A stretch of 64,000 nt of DNA from Oscillospiraceae bacterium. Its GTDB lineage: Bacteria > Bacillota > Clostridia > Oscillospirales > Acutalibacteraceae. This document shows positions 1,185 through 11,700 of the stretch, piece after piece. The stretch is taken from NCBI GenBank assembly GCA_015066015.1, contig SVPE01000005.1, positions 68,533 through 132,532 on the forward strand, given 5' to 3'. The notes beneath the pieces are model-generated. The model had not been told where the DNA came from. It saw nothing but the letters and a program-made list of their open reading frames with translations, and did not search any database. Numbering within the stretch: the stretch's first letter is position 1; every line of letters starts with the position of its first letter. A program made the translations under genes and the position numbers.

Positions 1185-4100
1185 ATGAAAAATTATTTAA
1201 AGAAAAGCTTATCTCTTTTAATGGCAGTTCTTATGATTCTGTCCTGCTGGGTGTGGATTGCACCTGATAAGGCAGAGGCAGCAACATCAGGATATTATCC
1301 TTTAACTCTTGTTTGGGATGTTAAAGACGAGGTTAACGGCGGTTCTGCAAAAGTAACGGTTACTTATACAACTAATAACGGAACCGGATCCTCGACCAGT
1401 AAAGAATATAGTATGGATGCTCTTAAAAGTAATACAGGTTCGGTTACTTGGTCCCAGGAGATTCCCGGCTTCCCGACGAATATTTCTATCACAATCGACA
1501 ACGAGGGTATGCGTCAGTTTGAAATGGTATTGCAGTCGATCACAATAGCAGGCAGAACGATTGGTACAGGTGACTGGACATTTAAGTCAACCTGGGGCAG
1601 TGCCTCAAAAAACTATCCTCAGGCCGGCGGCGGTGACTGGGGTACTGTTGACCCTACTACTAACTGGACCAAGCCTTTCCTCAACACAGCAACTGCAACT
1701 CTTGACCCCACTTCACATACACTTGCTAAGATAAATTCCGGTACAAATTCAACATCAACAATTTCTCTCAGCGGTTTTGTTGATGATTATGGTATTGACT
1801 GGAAAGGTACAGTTACTTCCACTTTCAATCTTCGTGTTGACGATGGTATAACACTTGGCTCAAATGCTACAATTGCCGGTAGCGGTAACAGCAGAACCAT
1901 TACAATCAAGCCCTGGTTCCAGACACTCTATTCGGGCAAACAGAATGCAAAGCTTTATATAGACTGGACTGCAACGGGCGGTAGCGGTACAAAGACAGGT
2001 ATAGAAACCATTACCGTTGACTTCCCCACCTACAAGGCAACCTTTGATGCTAACGGTGGTAAGATAGGTAACGATGACTCTGAAGCTAAGGATCAGATCG
2101 TTCTTGAAGGCGAAAAGATGAACATCGGTTCAATCATCGGTAAGGCTCCTGCTTATGCAACAAAGGACGGATTTGAGTTCAAGGGCTTCTATTCAACAAA
2201 GAATGCTGATGCAACAGGACTTAATGCCTCATTCAGCGGAACAAAGTTTAAAGATAATGAAACCACCATTCCCGCAGCTTCTACAGGTAACGGCGATACA
2301 ACCTGGTATGCTGCATGGCAGGCACTTCCCATCACTGCAACCTTCGTAACAGCTGACAATCAGCTTATCGGTACAGTTGAAGGTCGTTACAATAACTATA
2401 TGACTGCATCAAACATGTACAACGGTGATGCAGGACTTAATGCTGCAGTCAAGGCTGCTTATACAGGTTCAACTGTTAAGTTCAACAGCAACAACCAACC
2501 TATCTATACAGACGGTTCAACAAATTATACCTTCGACGGTTGGAAAATCATCAAAGCTTACGATGAAAGCGTTGTTGACGGTAACGAAGATACCGTTCTT
2601 CATGGTGACGTAACCTTCCAGGCAGTTTATAGAAAGGCTGATGCTGCTACATATACCGTTTCATTTGAAGACGGTAACGGCACGGTTATTTCAACACGGA
2701 GTGGTTATAAGTACAGAGACGATGTTACAAACATTCCTGCTAATGATCCCACCAAGGCTCAGGACGACAGATATGACTATGAGTTCATCGGTTGGGCAAA
2801 GGATATCGGCAAGAATTTCTACACTGTTGATGAATATGACAACGATGAAAACGGTGCAAAAATCGTTTACACACATAAGGATGGCGCCGAATTTATCGTT
2901 AAGGGCGATGCATCCTATGTTCCCGTATTCAGAATGATTCCCCGTGAATACAAGGTAACTTATAACTACATAGTTGACGGTGGTAATTCTGCAAGTATTG
3001 TTGTTGAGGGCTTCCACTGGCATGACGCGCCCACTATGCCCGAAATTAAGGATAATTACACAGCTGTCGGTTACAGATATTACCTTCTTGGTTGGAAGGT
3101 AAACAATACCGGAGAGATAAAGCAGCTTGATGAAATCGCTGTTAACGGTGATATGAGCCTTACTGCAGCTTACGGTAATCGCGAAGCTGCAAAGTACACC
3201 ATCAACTTCTACGGTAAGGATGTTGACGGTGAAACAGATGTACATCTTAACCCGGAAGCAAATATTTATGAGCATAATACAGCTGTAACTGTTCCTGATG
3301 TTGCTCCGACAATCGATACCGAGGATGCACTTTACACCTTTGCAGGTTGGTCACCTGAAATAAAGACAACTGCAAGCGGTGACGCTGAATATTATGCAAC
3401 ATATACAAAGAAGGATTATGCAGACCTTCACTTCTATAATTATGACGGAACCCTTATTGACGAACTCGACGGTAAAGAGAACAGTCTCTTTGTAGGTGAA
3501 ACAATTCCCGCTTTCACAGATGAAACACCGGTTAAGGAAGCTGATGTTGTCGGTACCTATAACTTCACAGGCTGGGCAGATGCAAGCGGTAACGAAGTTG
3601 TTCCCGGTACAGATAAATTCACCGGTGACACATACCTCACCGCACAGTTTGAAACTGATTATACAGAGTATAAAGTTATGTTTGTAAACGAAGGCGCAGT
3701 TGTTTCTGAAAAAGATTATCACTACGGTGAGGAAATTGTAATTCCTGATAATCCCACAAAGGCAGCTGACGTTGAGTATATCTATGACTTCAGAGCATGG
3801 TCACCCGACGTTTCAAAGGTTTGCTACGGCGAAGCAACCTACGAAGCAACCTACAGAAGAACTCCTCAGTATTATACTGTTACATGGCTTAATGATGCTA
3901 AGGCAATTCATACAGAAAGTAACTATCAGTATAATGCAAAGATTCAGCAGGCAGTAATCAACGATCCTGTAAGCTATGATGCTCCTGAAACAGGTAAGAC
4001 ATGGGCATTCAAGCACTGGGTACAGTGTGATGCAGACGGCAATGATATCCTTGTTGACGATGAGCAGGTAATCTTTGCACGTGGTATGAGAATGCCTGCA

Positions 4101-7100
4101 GAGCATCTCTACTTCTATCCTGTATTTGAGCAAGTAGATAATGTTCTTACAGTAACCTTCTATAAGGAAGACGGCACATCTCTTCTTGGTGAAGCTAAGA
4201 TTCCTTATGGCGGAAACATTGCTGATTATGCAGAGCCCTTCGCAGCAAAGGCTCCCAAGATTTCCGATGATACCTACCACTATATTATCAACAAGTGGGT
4301 AAATGTCAATGGTGGAGCAGATGTAACTAAAATCACTGCTGATGTTTCAGTTAAGCCGGACTATACATCGGAAGCTCATAACAAGCAGATTTATGAGGTC
4401 GTTGCAGAGCCCACCTGTAATGTTCCCGGCTACGGTCACTTCAGATGTGTGGATCAAGAAGGACGTATCGTTGAAGAGTGTACAGAAATCGACTACAATG
4501 TGGCTATTGCTCCCATCGCTGATGAAGGTGAGCCTACCGGTCAGATTTATGTGGGTACAGATAAGTGGACACTTGCTCAGTTTGATGCAGGCATTGATTA
4601 TACTGATGTCAAGTTTGTAGGTCCTAATACTCAGCTCATCGTAAATGCTGAAGATACAGGTACACGTTCAATGCCCTGGAATAACGAAGGTGAGCTTTCA
4701 AGAGGCGTAGGTAAGATCGAGTACTATGTTTCCGAAGAAGAAATAGATGATCTTACCATTGTAACAGAAGGTTGGACAGAAATCTACAACTATGAAGCTC
4801 TCAGACAGGAAGCACTCAACACAGTTCTTGCTGAAAAGAAGCTTACACTTGTTGATTATGACGGTTATTTAAGAGGCGGTCTTGAAGCTCAGATGAAGAA
4901 GGCAGAAATTGACAGAACAGTTGATGCTCTCCTTTCAATCTACAATGCAAACGCAACAGATGTTCTTTCAAACCTTAACCTTGTTAACGGTAAGGAATAC
5001 ATCATTTATATCAAGGTTTCCGACCGTGAAGGAAACGGTGAAGTAAACGTTAATTACTTCAGCTCAGGTTCTGTCAGCTACGGTTCAACAGCTGCGGAAA
5101 TTGCAGTAAGCGGTGAAGGCTACGGCACAAAGTTCTGCGCAGAGGCAACAATTAAGGTTACTGATGATAATGACGGCTTCAAGGTATTCGTTGATGAGGA
5201 TAAGGTTACTCTTACAAACGGCGAATACATTTGTGACAAGGCTGGCGTTCATACCGTAACTGTTATTGACAAGCACGGAAACAAAACAACTAAGATCTTT
5301 GAAATTAAGGGCAGCCACTCCTATAGAAACTACACAATTGCTGCTACATGTGAAAATGCAGGCTCAAGATATGACCTTTGTACTCTTTGCGGTGCAAAGG
5401 CAAATGAGACAGTACTTCCTGCACTCGGTCACAGTTATATAACAAACTTCATTGATAAGGATCCTGACTGTATCAACGATGGTACAAGAACATACGTCTG
5501 TGAAAACAACTGCGGTATTAAGCTCGTGCTTAAGCCTACAGATGATGCAGCTACAATTGCACAGGCAAAGAAGAATGTAGAAGGTCAGGAAGAGCCTGTT
5601 TCCCTTACAGCTGAAGACCTTGAGCATCTTAAAGCTACAGGTGTTCATACTTATGAAAAGGTTAAGGATGCCAACGGCAATGATACAGATGATGCATGGG
5701 TAATTGACAAAGAAGCAACATGTAAGGTTGCAGGTTCAAAACACAAGGATTGTACAAAGTGCGGTTACAGAGTAACTGAAGATATTGCTGTTGATACAGA
5801 AAACGGCCACAAGTTCTACCGTGAAAAGGTAACTCTTGAACCCACATGTACTGAAAAGGGTGAAAAGACAAAGACCTGCCGTTATTGTGGTTATAAAGAA
5901 ATAGTTGAAGAACTTGATGCACTTGGTCACAGTGAAGGCGAGTACAGAGTAATCGCTGACGCAACATGTGAAGTTGCCGGTTCAAAGATCCTCACTTGTG
6001 CAGTCTGCGGTGTTGACATCGGTGAGCCCATTGAGGTTGATGGCAAAGTAACCGGTTTTGACGGCAAGGAAGTTGAGATTCCTGCAACAGCTCACGCATG
6101 GAAGATCAGCGGTGAAGTATACGAAGAAAATGGTAAGTATTATCAGGACTATGTATGTAGAAAAGATAGCAATCATACCAAGAGAGAGGAAGTAGCAGAT
6201 TATCAGCCTCCCGTTGCTGCAACTGTCACCTTCGACTTCAATGGCGGTTCATACACAGTTCCTGCAGTAGGTAACCCCAATGAGATCGGCTATGTTCCCG
6301 AAATGCTCAAGGGCACTCAGGCAATCAGTACTTTCGTTGGTGAATCAATCGGTGCTGACGAAGTTGAGACAGCTTTCAAGCAGGATAATGCAACAAAGAC
6401 CTATAAGTTCGCTTATTGGGCAACCAAGAATGCTGATGGAACATATACCGAAGTTAATTTCCCCATCGAGGTTAAGGGCGATGCTACTTACTATGCAGTT
6501 TATACAGAAAAGTATGTAAACTATACAATTACATATTATAAGGAAGATGGCACAACCGAATTCAAGAAAGTTGGTTACCTCCATAATGGTGACGAAGTTG
6601 CACTTGTAGACGGTCCCTCAAAGGCAGAAACCAATCTTGTTAAGTATGTGTTTGCAGGTTGGAAGGAAACAACAGGAGATAAGGTTTACACCGATAAGGT
6701 AACAATCGACGGTGCAAACATCAACCTCAAGGCAACATATACAGAGGTTAAGAAGCAGTATGCAGTTACATACGCTTACTCAAGCAGCAACATCATTCAC
6801 ACTTACACCGTTACAGCCGGTGATCCCGCACCTGATGTTCGCAATGATTTTGATGTTGAAAAGGGATACGATACAAAGTATCACTATGAGTTCAAAGAAT
6901 GGAACAGAGATGCTCAGCTTGCAAAGGTCGAGAGCAACATTTACACAACACCTAACTTTGACCCCGTTCTTCATACATACGATCATGCAGGCGGCAAGAC
7001 TCTTCTTACTGCTGCAGACTGTACAAACAAGGCAGTATATACCTATACCTGTACTTGCGGATACAGCTATACAAAGGCTGAAGGTGAAGCACTCGGTCAT

Positions 7101-8309
7101 GATTGGGGTGATTATGTAGCCGGCGAAGACGGCAAGAGCGTCAGAACGTGTAAAAGATGTCAGGCCAAAGACGAAAATACAACAACATTTACAATCAAAT
7201 TCTTCAAGTATGCTGATGACACAGAAGATCTCAAGACTATCAGCTACATTCCCTGGAACACAATAATTGCAGCAACAAGACTTCCTGCAGCTCCCTCCAA
7301 GGAATCAGACTCAATGTATGATTATAAGTTTGCAGGCTGGATTGAAAAGGGTGATGCAACAGAAGCAGTTGTAGATTTCACAAATCTTGCTATCACAAAG
7401 AACTATGAATTTGTTGCAAAGTTTGACAAGACAATCAGAGAGTACAGTGTAATCTTCGCATATGATGCAAAGAATGCGATTCAGATCTCCACAAAGGTTC
7501 CTGCAGGTTCAAGTGTTAAATTCGAAGGAAGCATTCCTGTTAAGGAGTGTGATGTAAACTATCATTACACCTTCAGCGGATGGGAAGGCTATGAAGGCAC
7601 AGCTCACGACATTACTGTTACAAGTGTACAGTGCGATCTCTATATCCTTGCAAAGTTTGACAAAGCTCCTCATACATTCACAAGCTATGAGCTTGCAGCA
7701 GCTACCTGCACAAACGGTACCGGTACAAGATATTACTGTGACTGTGACGGCAACGGAGAGTTTACTGAAAAGGTCAACGGTAAATTTGTTGACTATTACT
7801 ATGATATAACAGGCAAGCCTCTTGATCATAAGTATAAAGAAATCACTCGTGTAGAAGCTACTCCTGACAGAGACGGTTATGTTAAGTATGAGTGTGAGAC
7901 CTGCGGTGCAACTACAGAGGAAACTCTTAAGTATAACGACAATACAATTGAAGTTAAGGTATATGCCGAGCATAATGGCAAACCCGCTTCAGGTATTAAG
8001 GTTGAAATCAGATCTCTCAGCACCGGCGCAGCGGTTTATGGCACAACAAATGCAAACGGTATTGCTATATTCAGAGTTGACAAGGATGATGCATATCAGT
8101 GTTATGCAAATGAAACCTTAATTACACTTACAACTGTTGCAAACGGCAATCTTGAAGGCGTATACAGCTACACAGATCAGGCAAACTGCACATGTGCTTG
8201 CCATCGTGACAATGTCTGGGGTGCAATCTTCAGATTCTTCCATAAGATTATCAAGCTCTTCACAGGCGAATTCAAGTGCTGCGGCAACCCCGACCCGATG
8301 TACGGCTAA
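1185..8309 (+). CDS. giant secreted repeat protein (2,374 aa): InlB-B/Listeria-Bacteroides-type repeats plus Cys-rich units; function unknown
   Basis: 7.1-kb ORF with SD AAGGAGG upstream of the ATG and signal peptide MKNYLKKSLSLLMAVLMILSCWVWIAPDKAEA. It has 14 units of the pattern Y-x-V-x-F...Y-x-F-x-GW...Y-x-A-x-Y and about 9 Cys-rich units. A CarboxypepD_reg-like beta domain (IEVKVYAEHNGKPASGIKVEIRS..NANGIAIFRV) lies near the C-terminus, followed by a Cys-rich amphipathic tail. Confidence 0.95.
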   Translation: MKNYLKKSLSLLMAVLMILSCWVWIAPDKAEAATSGYYPLTLVWDVKDEVNGGSAKVTVTYTTNNGTGSSTSKEYSMDALKSNTGSVTWSQEIPGFPTNISITIDNEGMRQFEMVLQSITIAGRTIGTGDWTFKSTWGSASKNYPQAGGGDWGTVDPTTNWTKPFLNTATATLDPTSHTLAKINSGTNSTSTISLSGFVDDYGIDWKGTVTSTFNLRVDDGITLGSNATIAGSGNSRTITIKPWFQTLYSGKQNAKLYIDWTATGGSGTKTGIETITVDFPTYKATFDANGGKIGNDDSEAKDQIVLEGEKMNIGSIIGKAPAYATKDGFEFKGFYSTKNADATGLNASFSGTKFKDNETTIPAASTGNGDTTWYAAWQALPITATFVTADNQLIGTVEGRYNNYMTASNMYNGDAGLNAAVKAAYTGSTVKFNSNNQPIYTDGSTNYTFDGWKIIKAYDESVVDGNEDTVLHGDVTFQAVYRKADAATYTVSFEDGNGTVISTRSGYKYRDDVTNIPANDPTKAQDDRYDYEFIGWAKDIGKNFYTVDEYDNDENGAKIVYTHKDGAEFIVKGDASYVPVFRMIPREYKVTYNYIVDGGNSASIVVEGFHWHDAPTMPEIKDNYTAVGYRYYLLGWKVNNTGEIKQLDEIAVNGDMSLTAAYGNREAAKYTINFYGKDVDGETDVHLNPEANIYEHNTAVTVPDVAPTIDTEDALYTFAGWSPEIKTTASGDAEYYATYTKKDYADLHFYNYDGTLIDELDGKENSLFVGETIPAFTDETPVKEADVVGTYNFTGWADASGNEVVPGTDKFTGDTYLTAQFETDYTEYKVMFVNEGAVVSEKDYHYGEEIVIPDNPTKAADVEYIYDFRAWSPDVSKVCYGEATYEATYRRTPQYYTVTWLNDAKAIHTESNYQYNAKIQQAVINDPVSYDAPETGKTWAFKHWVQCDADGNDILVDDEQVIFARGMRMPAEHLYFYPVFEQVDNVLTVTFYKEDGTSLLGEAKIPYGGNIADYAEPFAAKAPKISDDTYHYIINKWVNVNGGADVTKITADVSVKPDYTSEAHNKQIYEVVAEPTCNVPGYGHFRCVDQEGRIVEECTEIDYNVAIAPIADEGEPTGQIYVGTDKWTLAQFDAGIDYTDVKFVGPNTQLIVNAEDTGTRSMPWNNEGELSRGVGKIEYYVSEEEIDDLTIVTEGWTEIYNYEALRQEALNTVLAEKKLTLVDYDGYLRGGLEAQMKKAEIDRTVDALLSIYNANATDVLSNLNLVNGKEYIIYIKVSDREGNGEVNVNYFSSGSVSYGSTAAEIAVSGEGYGTKFCAEATIKVTDDNDGFKVFVDEDKVTLTNGEYICDKAGVHTVTVIDKHGNKTTKIFEIKGSHSYRNYTIAATCENAGSRYDLCTLCGAKANETVLPALGHSYITNFIDKDPDCINDGTRTYVCENNCGIKLVLKPTDDAATIAQAKKNVEGQEEPVSLTAEDLEHLKATGVHTYEKVKDANGNDTDDAWVIDKEATCKVAGSKHKDCTKCGYRVTEDIAVDTENGHKFYREKVTLEPTCTEKGEKTKTCRYCGYKEIVEELDALGHSEGEYRVIADATCEVAGSKILTCAVCGVDIGEPIEVDGKVTGFDGKEVEIPATAHAWKISGEVYEENGKYYQDYVCRKDSNHTKREEVADYQPPVAATVTFDFNGGSYTVPAVGNPNEIGYVPEMLKGTQAISTFVGESIGADEVETAFKQDNATKTYKFAYWATKNADGTYTEVNFPIEVKGDATYYAVYTEKYVNYTITYYKEDGTTEFKKVGYLHNGDEVALVDGPSKAETNLVKYVFAGWKETTGDKVYTDKVTIDGANINLKATYTEVKKQYAVTYAYSSSNIIHTYTVTAGDPAPDVRNDFDVEKGYDTKYHYEFKEWNRDAQLAKVESNIYTTPNFDPVLHTYDHAGGKTLLTAADCTNKAVYTYTCTCGYSYTKAEGEALGHDWGDYVAGEDGKSVRTCKRCQAKDENTTTFTIKFFKYADDTEDLKTISYIPWNTIIAATRLPAAPSKESDSMYDYKFAGWIEKGDATEAVVDFTNLAITKNYEFVAKFDKTIREYSVIFAYDAKNAIQISTKVPAGSSVKFEGSIPVKECDVNYHYTFSGWEGYEGTAHDITVTSVQCDLYILAKFDKAPHTFTSYELAAATCTNGTGTRYYCDCDGNGEFTEKVNGKFVDYYYDITGKPLDHKYKEITRVEATPDRDGYVKYECETCGATTEETLKYNDNTIEVKVYAEHNGKPASGIKVEIRSLSTGAAVYGTTNANGIAIFRVDKDDAYQCYANETLITLTTVANGNLEGVYSYTDQANCTCACHRDNVWGAIFRFFHKIIKLFTGEFKCCGNPDPMYG
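2031..4368 (+). repeat. block of 9 Listeria/Bacteroides-type (Flg_new / InlB B-repeat-like) units, ~70-100 aa each
   Basis: Unit starts are YKATFDANGGKIG, ITATFVTADNQ, YTVSFEDGNG, YKVTYNYIVDGG, YTINFYGKDVDG, LHFYNYDG, YKVMFVNEG, YTVTWLNDA and LTVTFYKEDG. Each ends in a Y-x-F-x-GW ... Y-x-A/P-x-Y/F pattern. Confidence 0.7.
5331..6180 (+). repeat. cluster of Cys-rich units (C-x6-G-x5-C-x2-CG ... LGH)
   Basis: ATCENAGSRYDLCTLCGAKANETVLPALGHSY; DCINDGTRTYVCENNCG; ATCKVAGSKHKDCTKCGY..ENGHKF; PTCTEKGEKTKTCRYCGYKEIVEELDALGHSEGEY; ATCEVAGSKILTCAVCG. Single extra units lie at ~4405-4490, ~7010-7170 and ~7690-7940. Confidence 0.7.
6219..6963 (+). repeat. second block of 3 Listeria/Bacteroides-type units
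   Basis: ATVTFDFNGGSY..YKFAYW..YYAVYTE; YTITYYKEDG..YVFAGW..LKATYTE; YAVTYAYSS..YEFKEW. Confidence 0.65.
7186..7660 (+). repeat. third block of 2 Listeria/Bacteroides-type units
   Basis: FTIKFFKYADD..YKFAGW..FVAKFD; YSVIFAYDAKN..YTFSGW..ILAKFD. Confidence 0.6.
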
Positions 8310-8334: not shown

Positions 8335-8369
8335 AAAGGCATCTTCTTCGGAAGATGCCTTTCTTTATT
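8335..8369 (+). terminator. strong Rho-independent terminator of the 2,374-aa gene
   Basis: Perfect 12-bp stem AAAGGCATCTTC-ttcg-GAAGATGCCTTT followed by CTTTATT, 26 nt after the stop codon. Confidence 0.85.
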
Positions 8370-8487: not shown

Positions 8488-8574
8488 GTCAAAATAACAG
8501 ATTTGTTAAACTAAACAAATTAAAATTAATACATCTATGCAAAATGTAGAATTAAAAAAAAATTAAAAAATATA

Positions 8575-8603
8575 TTGAAAATCTTGAGTTCAAATGATAT
8601 ACT
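8575..8603 (+). promoter_or_regulatory. sigma-A type promoter of the 10,378-aa gene (TTGAAA, 17 nt, TGaTATACT extended -10)
   Basis: -35 TTGAAA at 8575-8580 and -10 TATACT at 8598-8603, with TG at 8595-8596. It sits in a very AT-rich upstream region and leaves a ~135-nt leader. Confidence 0.55.
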
Positions 8604-8737
8604 TACTATAGTTATAGGTGTCTCTATGGGCGAATTGCACCCTTTTTTAGGGAAATTCGCTTTAAAAGCGTTATTTTTGACGCTGAGAAATCCTATTTTA
8701 GATCATATACAATCTTTCATTTAAGGAGGAAAATTTT

Positions 8738-11700
8738 ATGAAAGTTGGTAAAAAAGCGTTAAGTTTGCTGTTGGCCGTGATCATGATCATGTCCACAATG
8801 TCAGTATCTTTCAGCGTATTTGCAGCAACAAATACCACAGCTGACATTTACAGCGCAATCGTAATGCACTATGACAGCCTTATGGATGCCATTGACAAGG
8901 CTACAGTTGCGGATGAGTCCAAGAGGGATACATCCGGCGTTCCTGTCAAGGATGGCTCTGAATGGGTAGTCAAACGTGACACTTTAAACGGAGGTTGGCT
9001 TGCAGTCTCAAGAGCCATTGCGTCTTATGCAAAGGGCACAGTTGCCACTAATAAGACCTATGTAGACCTGGTCGAGAAGATTAAGCTCGATGCAGCAGGT
9101 TATGCAGGCTCAAACGGACATCCCGTTGCTGACTATAATGCTATTCTTGAATACTACAAGTTCGGCTCAACTGCAACAGGCACATTTGCAACTCAGGAAA
9201 CCGTTACTCTCAACATTGGTACCGGTTTTGATTTGCTTGCCTTTAAGGATGTAGCCTCCATTGTAGACAAGACATATTCAAAAGCAACATTAAAGTTCAC
9301 TCCTAAGGGTGAGCTTGCTACAGGTTATACCCTTTCAACTGCTGACGATATCAGCTTCACAACTGAAGATTTTGTTGAAGCAGGTACTGATGTAGCTGTT
9401 ATCAAGGGTGTTCTTGAGCAGTGTGTTGCCGCTGATGCATTTAAGACTTGGTTCAATGCAGGCACGCTTACCACACAGCAGCTTGCTGATATGACAAACC
9501 TTCTCGCTCTCTTTGATACAACAATGGCACTCGCAGGTCTCGGCTATACAGAAGCTGAAATCTGGGATCACTATGTTGCACCCGAAGTTGGTAAAACATA
9601 TACAGAAACAAAGGCCTGGTATGATAATGCCGGTGCACGTGCAGAGGCTGAGCCCAAGGCTGATGCTTATAAGGAACGTATCGATAACCTTATGGCAACA
9701 AGTACAACAGCAATGACAGCTGAACAGCTCCGTGATCATAAGCGAGCAGTTGAAACTGTTATTCAGGAAATGGATAACGACCAGTTCAGCGTTCTCGTTT
9801 ATCAGATCGTAAATGAGAAGGAAGCTGATTACATCGGTGCAGCAGGCCGCAAGGTAGAGACATATCTCAAAGAGCTTGGCGTTAAAGTAGGTCAGGCTTA
9901 TGCTCCGTTGTACGCTGATGAGCTTGTTGCACTTGCTACAAGTGTTGACTCACTCAAGACAAAGAACGATGTTGAACTCGCTGAAGGTCAGGCTTGGGAA
10001 GACACAGAAGAATACCGGGCAAACCTTAACTGGCTTGAAGCTGCATCAGAACTCATCAGCAATATAGACAACTATGTTCTTACAGGTGCTACCTTTGCAG
10101 ATATTGCCGAAAGCAAGACAGCTGCAGATAATGCTATCACAGAAGCTCTTTACAACAAGGTTGCATCAAAGGTTGGTGAACTCTCACTTGAAATCTACGG
10201 TTCAACATACCGTGAGGACAAGGCTGCTATGGACAGCATTATGGCAAATACCATTCTTGTAGGTCGTAGCTACAGTGCTGTTTATGAAATAGCTCAGGAG
10301 TTTATCGGCTATTATAATAAGGCTCTTTCACTTAAGAACACAGCTTCAATGCAGGCTGTGTATGAGTCCATTTATCCTGATGGACTTGATGCGTACGAAG
10401 CATATGTACATACTCTTAAGGCAGCAGCTGCAAAGGCTTACTATGATGCCATTTCAATTGTTGATACGTACATCAGTGAAGCCGGTAAGGTTGCTTACTA
10501 CAATTTTGAAGTAATCATTTCAAAGGCTAATGCTATCAGCTCATCAGACGGCACTTATTCTGTTGTAGGTGCATTCCTTGCTGATGATCCCGCATATGTT
10601 CCCGCAACAGGTGATGTAAAGCCGGAAGATATCTCTGCCCTTTACAACAAGATTTACACCTCAGGAGGCTATCTTGATAAGGCCTACGCATTCAAAACCG
10701 GACTTAATAACCTTCGTAATCTTGCATATACCAATGCAAACGAACAGGTTGTTGACAAGAAGCTCCTTGCTTACATTCTCCGTCAGGAAAACGTAACCGG
10801 TTCAGCATACGCATGGGAAAGCATGCTCGGTAACGTAAGTGTTGACAAGATACGTGAATTTGTTAACGATATCGAGCTTGTTCAGCAGACAGGTATCGAA
10901 ACAAAGAACGGTAAGATTACAGCAGGTGGTATTGAAGATCTTATGAGCCTTGCTGTTGAAGATCTTGATAAGATTCTTATTTCTAATGACCTTGGTACCC
11001 TCCTTAACTCACTTACAGCTAAAGAGAACGAAGAAACCGGTGCAACTGTAGGTTTCCTCGGTGTATGGGGATTTGACTACACATTCAAGAATCCCGAAGG
11101 CGGCACAACAACGGTTAAGGCCGGTGATCCTTGTAAGAACCTTCGCGAATTTCTCATCAACACCATCGTTGGTCTTCTTTGGGGCGGTTCTCTTCAGACA
11201 ACGCTCTTCAAGCTTCTTTCAGAAACTGTTGGTGGTGCAGTTTACAACTTTGGCGGTGCTGCATTCGATGTTGTTGTTGCTACAAAGGACGGATGGCAGT
11301 GGCTTCCTGAAATTCTTCATATGGCTATTCCAGTAATGCCTCATGACTATGTAGAAAACTGGACTAACCCCCTTACAGGTGATACAAATAAAACATATCA
11401 GCAGATAGCACAGGATTATTATGTTGACTGGTACAAATACTTTACCGGTGCGGCTTTTGGTGCAACCGGTCATGCTGAGTATGATTATACAGATATTCTT
11501 TACGTTCTTGATAAGGCTCCTATAGATAAGAAGTGTAATGATGACACTACTGAATGGAGATCTTATTGGAAGGGCTTTACATACGCTGACAACATCTCTA
11601 ATGATAACAGAACTGAATACAGACCCGGTAACGTAATTACCGAAGGCTCATCTGCAGGTCAGGCTCTTGATGCAAGATATTGGGGCGAGGCAAATGGCCA

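Follow-up and report, generated by a model that had tools for sequence, protein, structure and literature searches.

Resembling promoter cores and early leaders precede two adjacent genes for very large secreted proteins in an Acutalibacteraceae genus

We analysed a stretch of 64,000 nucleotides (nt), hereafter the window, which spans positions 68533–132532 of contig C16 in the genome of an Oscillospiraceae bacterium (G000:C16:68533-132532, where G000 is the source genome and C stands for contig; the genome has 2.38 Mb in 42 contigs at 43% G+C, is 91% complete and belongs to the Acutalibacteraceae). Two neighbouring genes of the window, here called A and B, encode very large proteins with predicted signal peptides, and the promoter core and first ∼24 transcribed bases of the two genes appear to be specifically related. 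This likeness, to judge by the comparisons described below, is real but modest and covers about −35 to +45. As a reading of the whole locus we lean, with moderate confidence, towards two transcription units with homologous promoter/early-leader modules that would provide parallel strong expression, and with generic Shine-Dalgarno (SD) and Sec signals.

The shared promoter core and early leader

The genes, their promoters and the starts of their leaders are as follows.

1185–8309, + strand: gene A, 2,374 residues
8738–39874, + strand: gene B, 10,378 residues
953–982, + strand: gene A promoter, TTGACT, 18-nt spacer and TG-extended −10 AAATGATATACT
8575–8603, + strand: gene B promoter, TTGAAA, 17-nt spacer and TG-extended −10 AAATGATATACT
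983–1016, + strand: start of the A leader, GATACTAACTAAAAGTGACTCTAT then TACCCTTTT, predicted transcription start at about 989 (from the A-family core alignment, A4, and matrix ranking)
8604–8649, + strand: start of the B leader, TACTATAGTTATAGGTGTCTCTATGGGCGAATTGCACCCTTTTTT, almost invariant in the genus, predicted transcription start at about 8610 (from the B-family core alignment, A2)

The initial annotation had described a common extended −10 element below a TTGACT or TTGAAA −35, and we recovered exactly this arrangement: TTGACT-18-TATACT for A and TTGAAA-17-TATACT for B, both with the TG. The 12-mer AAATGATATACT lies at 971–982 in A and at 8592–8603 in B, and its third and last genomic copy falls inside a coding region. 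Compared with TTGACA, the −35 of A matches at five of six positions and that of B at four of six; the −10 of both, TGATATACT, matches at 5/6. Both are predicted to be near-consensus sigma-A extended −10 promoters. In either spacer a second TTGA follows 9 nt after the first, and an arrangement of TTGA-N5-TTGA plus extended −10 precedes 3 of the 2054 genes called in G000 by a simple procedure based on open reading frames (ORFs) and SD sequences, namely A, B and a further operon that encodes large secreted proteins. We also observed an overlapping promoter-like match, TTGAGT-17-TATAGT, at 8584–8612, 9 nt downstream of the main B promoter, which may account for the conserved second TTGA and the conserved TATAGT in B. 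The two promoters share with Firmicutes sigma-A promoters of the extended −10 type (TG-n-TATAAT) the TTGAnn hexamer, the spacer of 17–18 nt, the TG and the 5/6 match of the −10, as well as the A-rich tract upstream of the −35 of B. They differ from these in that the region from +1 to about +45 is conserved within the genus and is partly common to two unrelated genes.

The transcribed positions that A and B have in common read TA.A.RGTG.CTCT at +10 to +22 after the −10, followed by YACCCTTTT. Within them, GTGACTCTAT occupies 997–1006 in A and GTGTCTCTAT occupies 8618–8627 in B, and CCCTTTT stands at 1010–1016 and 8640–8646 respectively. Of the three leader strings that had been noted as common to the two genes, CTCTAT and CCCTTTT are thus present in both; AATTGC is present as well, but its order relative to CCCTTTT differs between the leaders and it is not conserved in relatives.

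The specificity of this likeness was assessed by genome-wide searches. An nhmmer profile of the region upstream of B, built from 27 genomes and searched against the whole of G000 (4.77 Mb on both strands), returned the region upstream of A as its best non-self match (E = 6.3e-4), while all other matches had E values of at least 0.18 and covered the promoter portion only. Across 61 genomes of the genus we then searched R1, a sequence-only covariance model of the B core with 78 positions, and R2, the model built from A. R1 found the B core in 47 genomes (47–82 bits) and R2 the A core in 42 (35–78 bits); mean pairwise identity within the cores was 77% for B and 83% for A. R1 also matched the A promoter, in G000 with 20.2 bits (E = 1e-3) and, among the matches listed, in nine further genomes. 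In addition, B-family matrices served to rank 197 promoter-like sites of the extended −10 type that precede G000 genes, the −10 being the reference point of the alignment. Over +1 to +24, A came first of the 196 non-self sites at −1.8 bits, the next site scoring −14.7, which leaves a gap of 13 bits; elsewhere, A tied for first place in the extended −10 and was fourth in the spacer. The same-offset score of the A site was reached by just 0.018% of genome positions. Within 201 genomes of the family the exact 17-mer GTTATAGGTGTCTCTAT was confined to this genus, and copies with one or two mismatches outside the genus were about as frequent as those of a reversed control.

Several results weigh against a specific relationship. 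In pairwise Smith-Waterman comparison of 2031 upstream regions the pair ranked third and sixth, behind unrelated regions. R2 did not recover the B promoter in G000 at E ≤ 0.01 and did so in G024 only, and the ordinary strong promoters of relatives reach 15–22 bits against R1, a range that includes the 20.2 bits of A. Positions that are invariant within the families differ between them (GTTATAGG in B versus ACTAACTAAAA in A), the matrix score of the A site is negative in absolute terms (−3.4 bits), and consensus against consensus, by our own count from A2 and A4, agreement is limited to 12 of the 24 positions that follow the −10. Together with the 63 genes of G000 that have TTGA..TGnTATA[AC]T promoters, and with SD and signal-peptide sequences that are generic (see below), these results are what one would expect had the two genes converged independently on the consensus signals of highly expressed secreted proteins, the likeness of the early leaders being due to chance and picked post hoc. 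We consider this explanation unlikely, though far from negligible: an unbiased genome-wide profile search had the upstream region of A, that is of the neighbouring gene, as its top non-self match, the 13-bit gap to the next promoter concerns +1 to +24, and at the shared positions either family shows little or no variation over dozens of species.

We rejected gene conversion between the two promoters, because they differ at variable positions within single genomes; the −15 region, for example, reads ATGC in one and ATGG, ATGT or ATGA in the other. The likeness would be older than the radiation of the genus and would have been kept by selection in each gene separately, with no sign of concerted evolution.

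The leaders beyond the shared region

Outside the shared region, the following elements were found upstream of the promoters and within the leaders.

898–936, + strand: block TTTTCGTCACAAGACACAATTTTTTAATAATTATAAAAG upstream of A, conserved in the upstream sequences of relatives across the genus, not present in B
8537–8574, + strand: block TATGCAAAATGTAGAATT upstream of B, followed by an A-rich UP-element-like tract, conserved in the genus, not present in A
1036–1053, + strand: hairpin CGGUC/GACUG of the A leader, loop AGGUCAGG conserved (predicted by RNAalifold from 17 A leaders), not in the B leader
1103–1150, + strand: nested stem-loop with UUUUA behind it, shortly before the SD of A (single-sequence folds of 17 relatives), not in the B leader
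8626–8724, + strand: short ORF of the B leader, MGELHPFLGKFALKALFLTLRNPILDHIQSFI plus stop codon (MGELHPFLGK...; 32 codons), its ATG preceded at 5 nt by an SD-like AGGTG

The leaders have predicted lengths of about 196 nt (A) and about 128 nt (B), and beyond about +45 they are different devices. In the A leader, the stem of the first hairpin shows changes compatible with pairing, as seen by eye in the alignment of 17 leaders, and the stems at 1103–1150 vary in sequence yet pair (ACGGC/GCCGU, AUGGU/ACCAU, CUGCG/CGCAG). The UUUUA behind the latter may pair with a conserved upstream AUUUCGU; the structure is not clearly a terminator. For the B leader RNAalifold yielded just a weak GGUG/CACC helix of 4 bp (−2 kcal/mol). 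Conservation there lies in the primary sequence, that is in box 1 (ATAGTTATAGGTGTCTCTATGGG), GCACCCTTTTT, box 2 (TATAGGGAATCCTAT) and ATTCTTTCAT before the SD, and A is without the 11-nt stretch GGGCGAATTGC of the B box. No Rfam family matched at gathering score in the whole window, and permissive searches of the leaders gave matches at chance level, far below the gathering scores. Since the devices beyond about +45 differ, any fine control is expected to be gene-specific.

The main hint of common ancestry of the leaders comes from an A paralogue on C27. Its leader has GGGYGAATTRYACCCTTTT in common with B and TATACCCTTTTGCG..AAAAAC..CTGAGGG in common with A, and so combines a B-like GGGTGAATTATACCCTTTT with an A-like TTTTGCG..AAAAAC..CTGAGGG. 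As a separate observation, hairpins whose loop contains AGGUCAG were seen in the leader of A (1036–1053) and in those of two A paralogues (G000:C27 near 55729 on the − strand and G000:C38 near 13369 on the + strand). The loop sequence reads AGGUCAGG in A and, in the two paralogues, GGAGGUCAG; the stems differ in sequence (TTTCAC/GTGAAA, TTCGCAA/TTGCGA and CGGTC/GACTG).

The TA.A.RGTG.CTCT box, perhaps together with the TTGA-N5-TTGA spacer, might be recognized by a single trans-acting factor through which A and B are switched together, which would amount to dedicated co-regulation. The factor could be a DNA-binding regulator or an RNA-binding protein, or the box could serve as a sigma-dependent pause or loading site for an elongation factor acting on transcripts of 7 and 31 kb. 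In A and B alike the box stands at one fixed distance from the −10, and both families conserve it; in the genome the composite pattern of promoter plus box occurs at A and B only. Moreover, −10-like hexamers follow the actual −10 (TATAGT and TATAGG in B, GATACT in A), and promoter-like motifs in early transcribed DNA are known to cause sigma-dependent pausing (PMC5389655). These points notwithstanding, we regard dedicated co-regulation as improbable. The conserved blocks upstream of the −35 are wholly different in A and B, and a shared palindromic operator was rejected, given that B has two ATAG-N6-CTAT boxes and the matching sequence of A is not palindromic. A search of the genome for further copies of the shared cassette, a check that had been proposed with the initial annotation, gave none that would define a regulon: outside A and B, GTG[AT]CTCTAT is found between genes once more, in a convergent terminator region, the copies of the 17-mer with two mismatches lie inside coding regions, and the weaker R1 matches on C9 and C38 are of a generic kind. 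This 91%-complete genome yielded no candidate factor and has one NusG-family gene (PF02357, a single locus on contig C41); a NusG paralogue as the partner of an ops-like site was accordingly rejected.

Leader elements that recruit processive antiterminators to long operons are exemplified by ops/RfaH and LoaP. The element described here resembles them as a short conserved sequence just downstream of the promoter of very long units (7 and 31 kb). It differs in that the genome has the one NusG-family gene, that Rfam gave no match, and that no ops-like sequence was seen by eye, no pattern search having been made for it. A bipartite system of conjugative elements, described in PMC8191782, is related to antitermination of the RfaH/LoaP type.

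In the B leader the box has a second possible meaning, as GGTG-TCTCT-ATG can be taken for an SD-like site with a start codon behind it. The box might thus be the translation start of a leader peptide (AGGUG, 5 nt, AUG GGC AUU UUG CAC CCU UUU, yielding MGxLHPFxG), in which case the likeness to A would be incidental or vestigial. Among the 46 B leaders that bear the box, 39 keep the ATG with an ORF starting MG[IEV]LHPF[LSWF]G, and in these the first 9–10 codons (MGxLHPFxGK) are conserved, with synonymous changes at the third positions of Gly2 (GGC/GGT), Pro6 (CCT/CCA) and Gly9 (all four bases). Furthermore, two relatives show this layout at an actual gene start (AAGGAAGTG-TTTCT-ATGGGAATTTTT). 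A similar ORF, ATGGGGATATTATACCCTTTT (MGILYPF...), with a terminator-like hairpin behind it, lies ahead of an unrelated gene, MNEEKKLTAIHSIENPKRR..., in G258 (C18:18114-19000), and a second locus in G016 (G016:C115:2579-2599) has the same 21-mer; both are possibly the same type of leader in another context. Against a leader peptide, the ATG is replaced by ATC, ATA or ATT in seven divergent lineages that keep the surrounding sequence, the length of the ORF ranges from 7 to > 44 codons, and box 2 is read in different frames. Third positions make up five of the eight clearly variable sites, which by our own binomial estimate (about 0.09) is not significant. In A, a conserved short ORF was rejected, the ATG being present in only some species and in different frames. 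We hold this explanation, too, to be improbable. The end of the B leader ORF is itself variable in position: in G000 its TAA stop directly abuts the GGAGG of the SD of gene B, and in some species the ORF reaches as far as the start of B or forms an in-frame fusion with it.

Gram-positive bacteria have several 5′ mRNA stabilizers, such as the ermC leader peptide with its stalled ribosome, the cryIIIA STAB-SD and the aprE leader. The B leader is similar to these in that an SD-like AGGUG, together with a short ORF, lies no more than about 20 nt from its predicted 5′ end, and a ribosome bound at this AGGUG could protect the very long mRNA. In contrast, A is without an SD-like site or a conserved ATG at the matching place. 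Any likeness of MGxLHPFxG to the ErmCL peptide is presumably limited to the first residues.

Separate transcription units, export signals and the gene pair

The terminator, translation starts and signal peptides are located as follows.

8336–8369, + strand: intrinsic terminator after A, AAGGCATCTTC-TTCG-GAAGATGCCTT followed by a T-run (found by eye, absent from the list of a simple scan)
1168–1187, + strand: translation start of A, TTAAGGAGGAAATCTTA then ATG
8721–8740, + strand: translation start of B, TTAAGGAGGAAAATTTT then ATG
1185–1280, + strand: signal peptide of A, MKNYLKKSLSLLMAVLMILSCWVWIAPDKAEA
8738–8824, + strand: signal peptide of B, MKVGKKALSLLLAVIMIMSTMSVSFSVFA

Both the terminator at 8336–8369 and the conserved promoter at 8575–8603 stand between the two genes, and relatives have an equivalent terminator at the same place. 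That B is co-transcribed from the A promoter by read-through, its own ‘promoter’ being unused, would suit two adjacent, syntenic genes on one strand but is very improbable in view of the strong terminator after A, which in relatives has other stem sequences, and of a B promoter that is conserved (47–82 bits) in 47 genomes, including five in which A is not upstream. Nor did the idea of one common cassette survive: the leaders differ in length, upstream blocks and internal motifs, and the terminator and the separate promoter of B part the genes.

The translation-initiation regions had been considered almost superimposable. The matching string itself is there, with TTAAGGAGGAAA at 1168–1179 and 8721–8732, in each case 5 nt before ATGAAA; a meaning specific to the pair did not hold up, as the SD is the canonical AAGGAGG, which precedes 184 of the 2054 called genes (9%). 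TTAAGGAGGAAA precedes five of these genes, all with signal-peptide-like starts. More generally, 24 G000 genes are preceded by AAGGAGGAAA, and 16 of the 24 have signal-peptide-like N-termini, a distribution that suggests a preferred translation-initiation context for secreted proteins.

Both proteins have the features of Sec signal peptides, as judged by eye and with a crude hydropathy filter: MKNYLKK, SLSLLMAVLMILSCWVWIA and ..AEA|A in A, and MKVGKK, ALSLLLAVIMIMS.. and VFA|A in B. The claim that these two peptides are specifically paralogous could not be upheld. Among the 2054 genes, the peptide of B ranked only seventh for A and that of A only fourth for B, within a genome-wide continuum of scores; the A peptide is nearest to those of its own paralogues (scores of 74–76, versus 54 for B), and dozens of others score 40–60. 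Likewise, the pattern KKxLSxLLAVxMxxS (MKK..LS.LLAV.M..S) recurs in dozens of secreted proteins of G000, and the CWVWxAP at the end of the A peptide is common to the A paralogues (CWVWVAPxxAxA) and not to B. With a canonical SD and a signal-peptide pattern found in dozens of proteins, the export part of the ‘cassette’ is therefore the house style of G000 for secreted proteins and is uninformative on the pair.

The mature proteins are unrelated, as had been stated from the start: BLASTP of A against B aligned the signal peptide alone (E = 0.13). Pfam searches identified only Listeria-Bacteroides repeats in A and no credible match in B, and NCBIfam had no match for A or for either end of B. Homologues of B, 9,000–12,900 residues in length, were present in 21 of 24 sampled genomes of the genus, and none were found in 16 genomes from other families of the order. 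Over its first 1,000 residues, B is 29–66% identical across relatives, dropping to about 30–40%.

The two genes nevertheless form a conserved pair. In 34 of the 47 genus genomes with the B element, an A-type promoter precedes the B-type one by 6.9–13.8 kb, the two sharing contig and strand. The remaining 13 comprise five in which A is clearly not upstream (G013, G004, G022, G012 and G263) and eight that cannot be judged because of contig ends, so that, of the 39 genomes open to assessment, 34 have A immediately upstream of B. The proposal that the adjacency is more than chance was thus borne out by the synteny check. In G013 the A promoter is retained on a different contig, and B retains its promoter where A is not upstream; the flanks around the pair vary between genomes. 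At two loci (G266:C52 and G250:C88) the A-type promoter lies 13–13.8 kb upstream of the B-type one, in place of ∼7.6 kb, which implies either a much larger gene A or an extra gene between the two. Three genomes have two copies each of the B-type promoter/leader (G003 on C21 and C108, G265 on C162 and C216, G249 on C146 and C305) and probably carry two B-type giant genes.

At their C-termini, the large secreted proteins of G000 show two classes of tail. The first, C.C.CH..G(F/W)...IYKI..FFWKLF....C.CG..HY, belongs to the A paralogues, with a variant in A (window 8211–8306). The second, FFQKI..WF.KII.WFKNLF, was seen in a 3,345-residue protein on C26 and a 1,198-residue protein on C9, with a variant in B (window 39803–39871). 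FFxKI...F is common to A and B.

A module of comparable layout is found on the ‘Hodor’ megaplasmids of gut Clostridia, which carry a pair of giant secreted proteins of > 7,300 and about 2,640 residues, reportedly co-transcribed in one operon, with S-layer and MBG domains and sortases nearby (bioRxiv 10.64898/2026.02.21.707213). Both systems combine a very large with a large secreted protein in a conserved module of gut Clostridia, a likeness of module layout. They differ in that A and B have two promoters with a terminator between them, and in their domains, of which Pfam finds none in B and Listeria-Bacteroides repeats in A.

A common module for parallel expression

The arrangement we favour is as follows. 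A and B would be separate transcription units, divided by the terminator after A and the promoter of B. Each would rely on a sigma-A promoter that is close to consensus and bears a TG-extended −10, on a long 5′ leader, on a fully complementary SD 8 nt before AUG AAA and on a Sec-type signal peptide. The 5′ ends of both most likely descended from one ancestral promoter/early-leader module, of which the C27 paralogue leader would preserve traces, and this module would give the two genes the same strong, parallel expression; parallel expression of A and B is plausible on the present sequence evidence. Further downstream, gene-specific devices would take over: in A the hairpin with the AGGUCAGG loop and the stem-loop before the SD, in B the SD-like site with the short ORF (MGxLHPFxG) and the ATAG-N6-CTAT boxes. 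For the shared box at +10 to +22, a common binding site, a sigma-dependent pause site and a 5′ stabilizer are candidate roles.

Genes of 7 and 31 kb place unusual demands on transcription, mRNA survival and export, and to our knowledge almost nothing is known about the expression of giant genes in uncultured gut Clostridia; the close relatives of the present organism are uncultured Acutalibacteraceae/Oscillospirales of animal guts. A literature search found no description of this locus. We raise as a rather doubtful possibility that the module from +1 to about +45 (TA.A.RGTG.CTCT, then YACCCUUUU) is an undescribed cis-regulatory element for the very long mRNAs of giant surface proteins in one genus of Acutalibacteraceae. 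Such an element, which in B can be read as an SD plus MGxLHPFxG, may act on elongation, stability or early translation, and related copies of it appear to lie upstream of the A paralogue on C27 and of an unrelated gene in G258 and G016.

The resemblances of SD and signal peptide are not to be over-read. The promoter and early leader, conserved across the genus next to a diverging B N-terminus, offer defined and testable control elements for giant surface proteins, and the early-leader box, if functional, would be a handle for predicting and manipulating the expression of these proteins.

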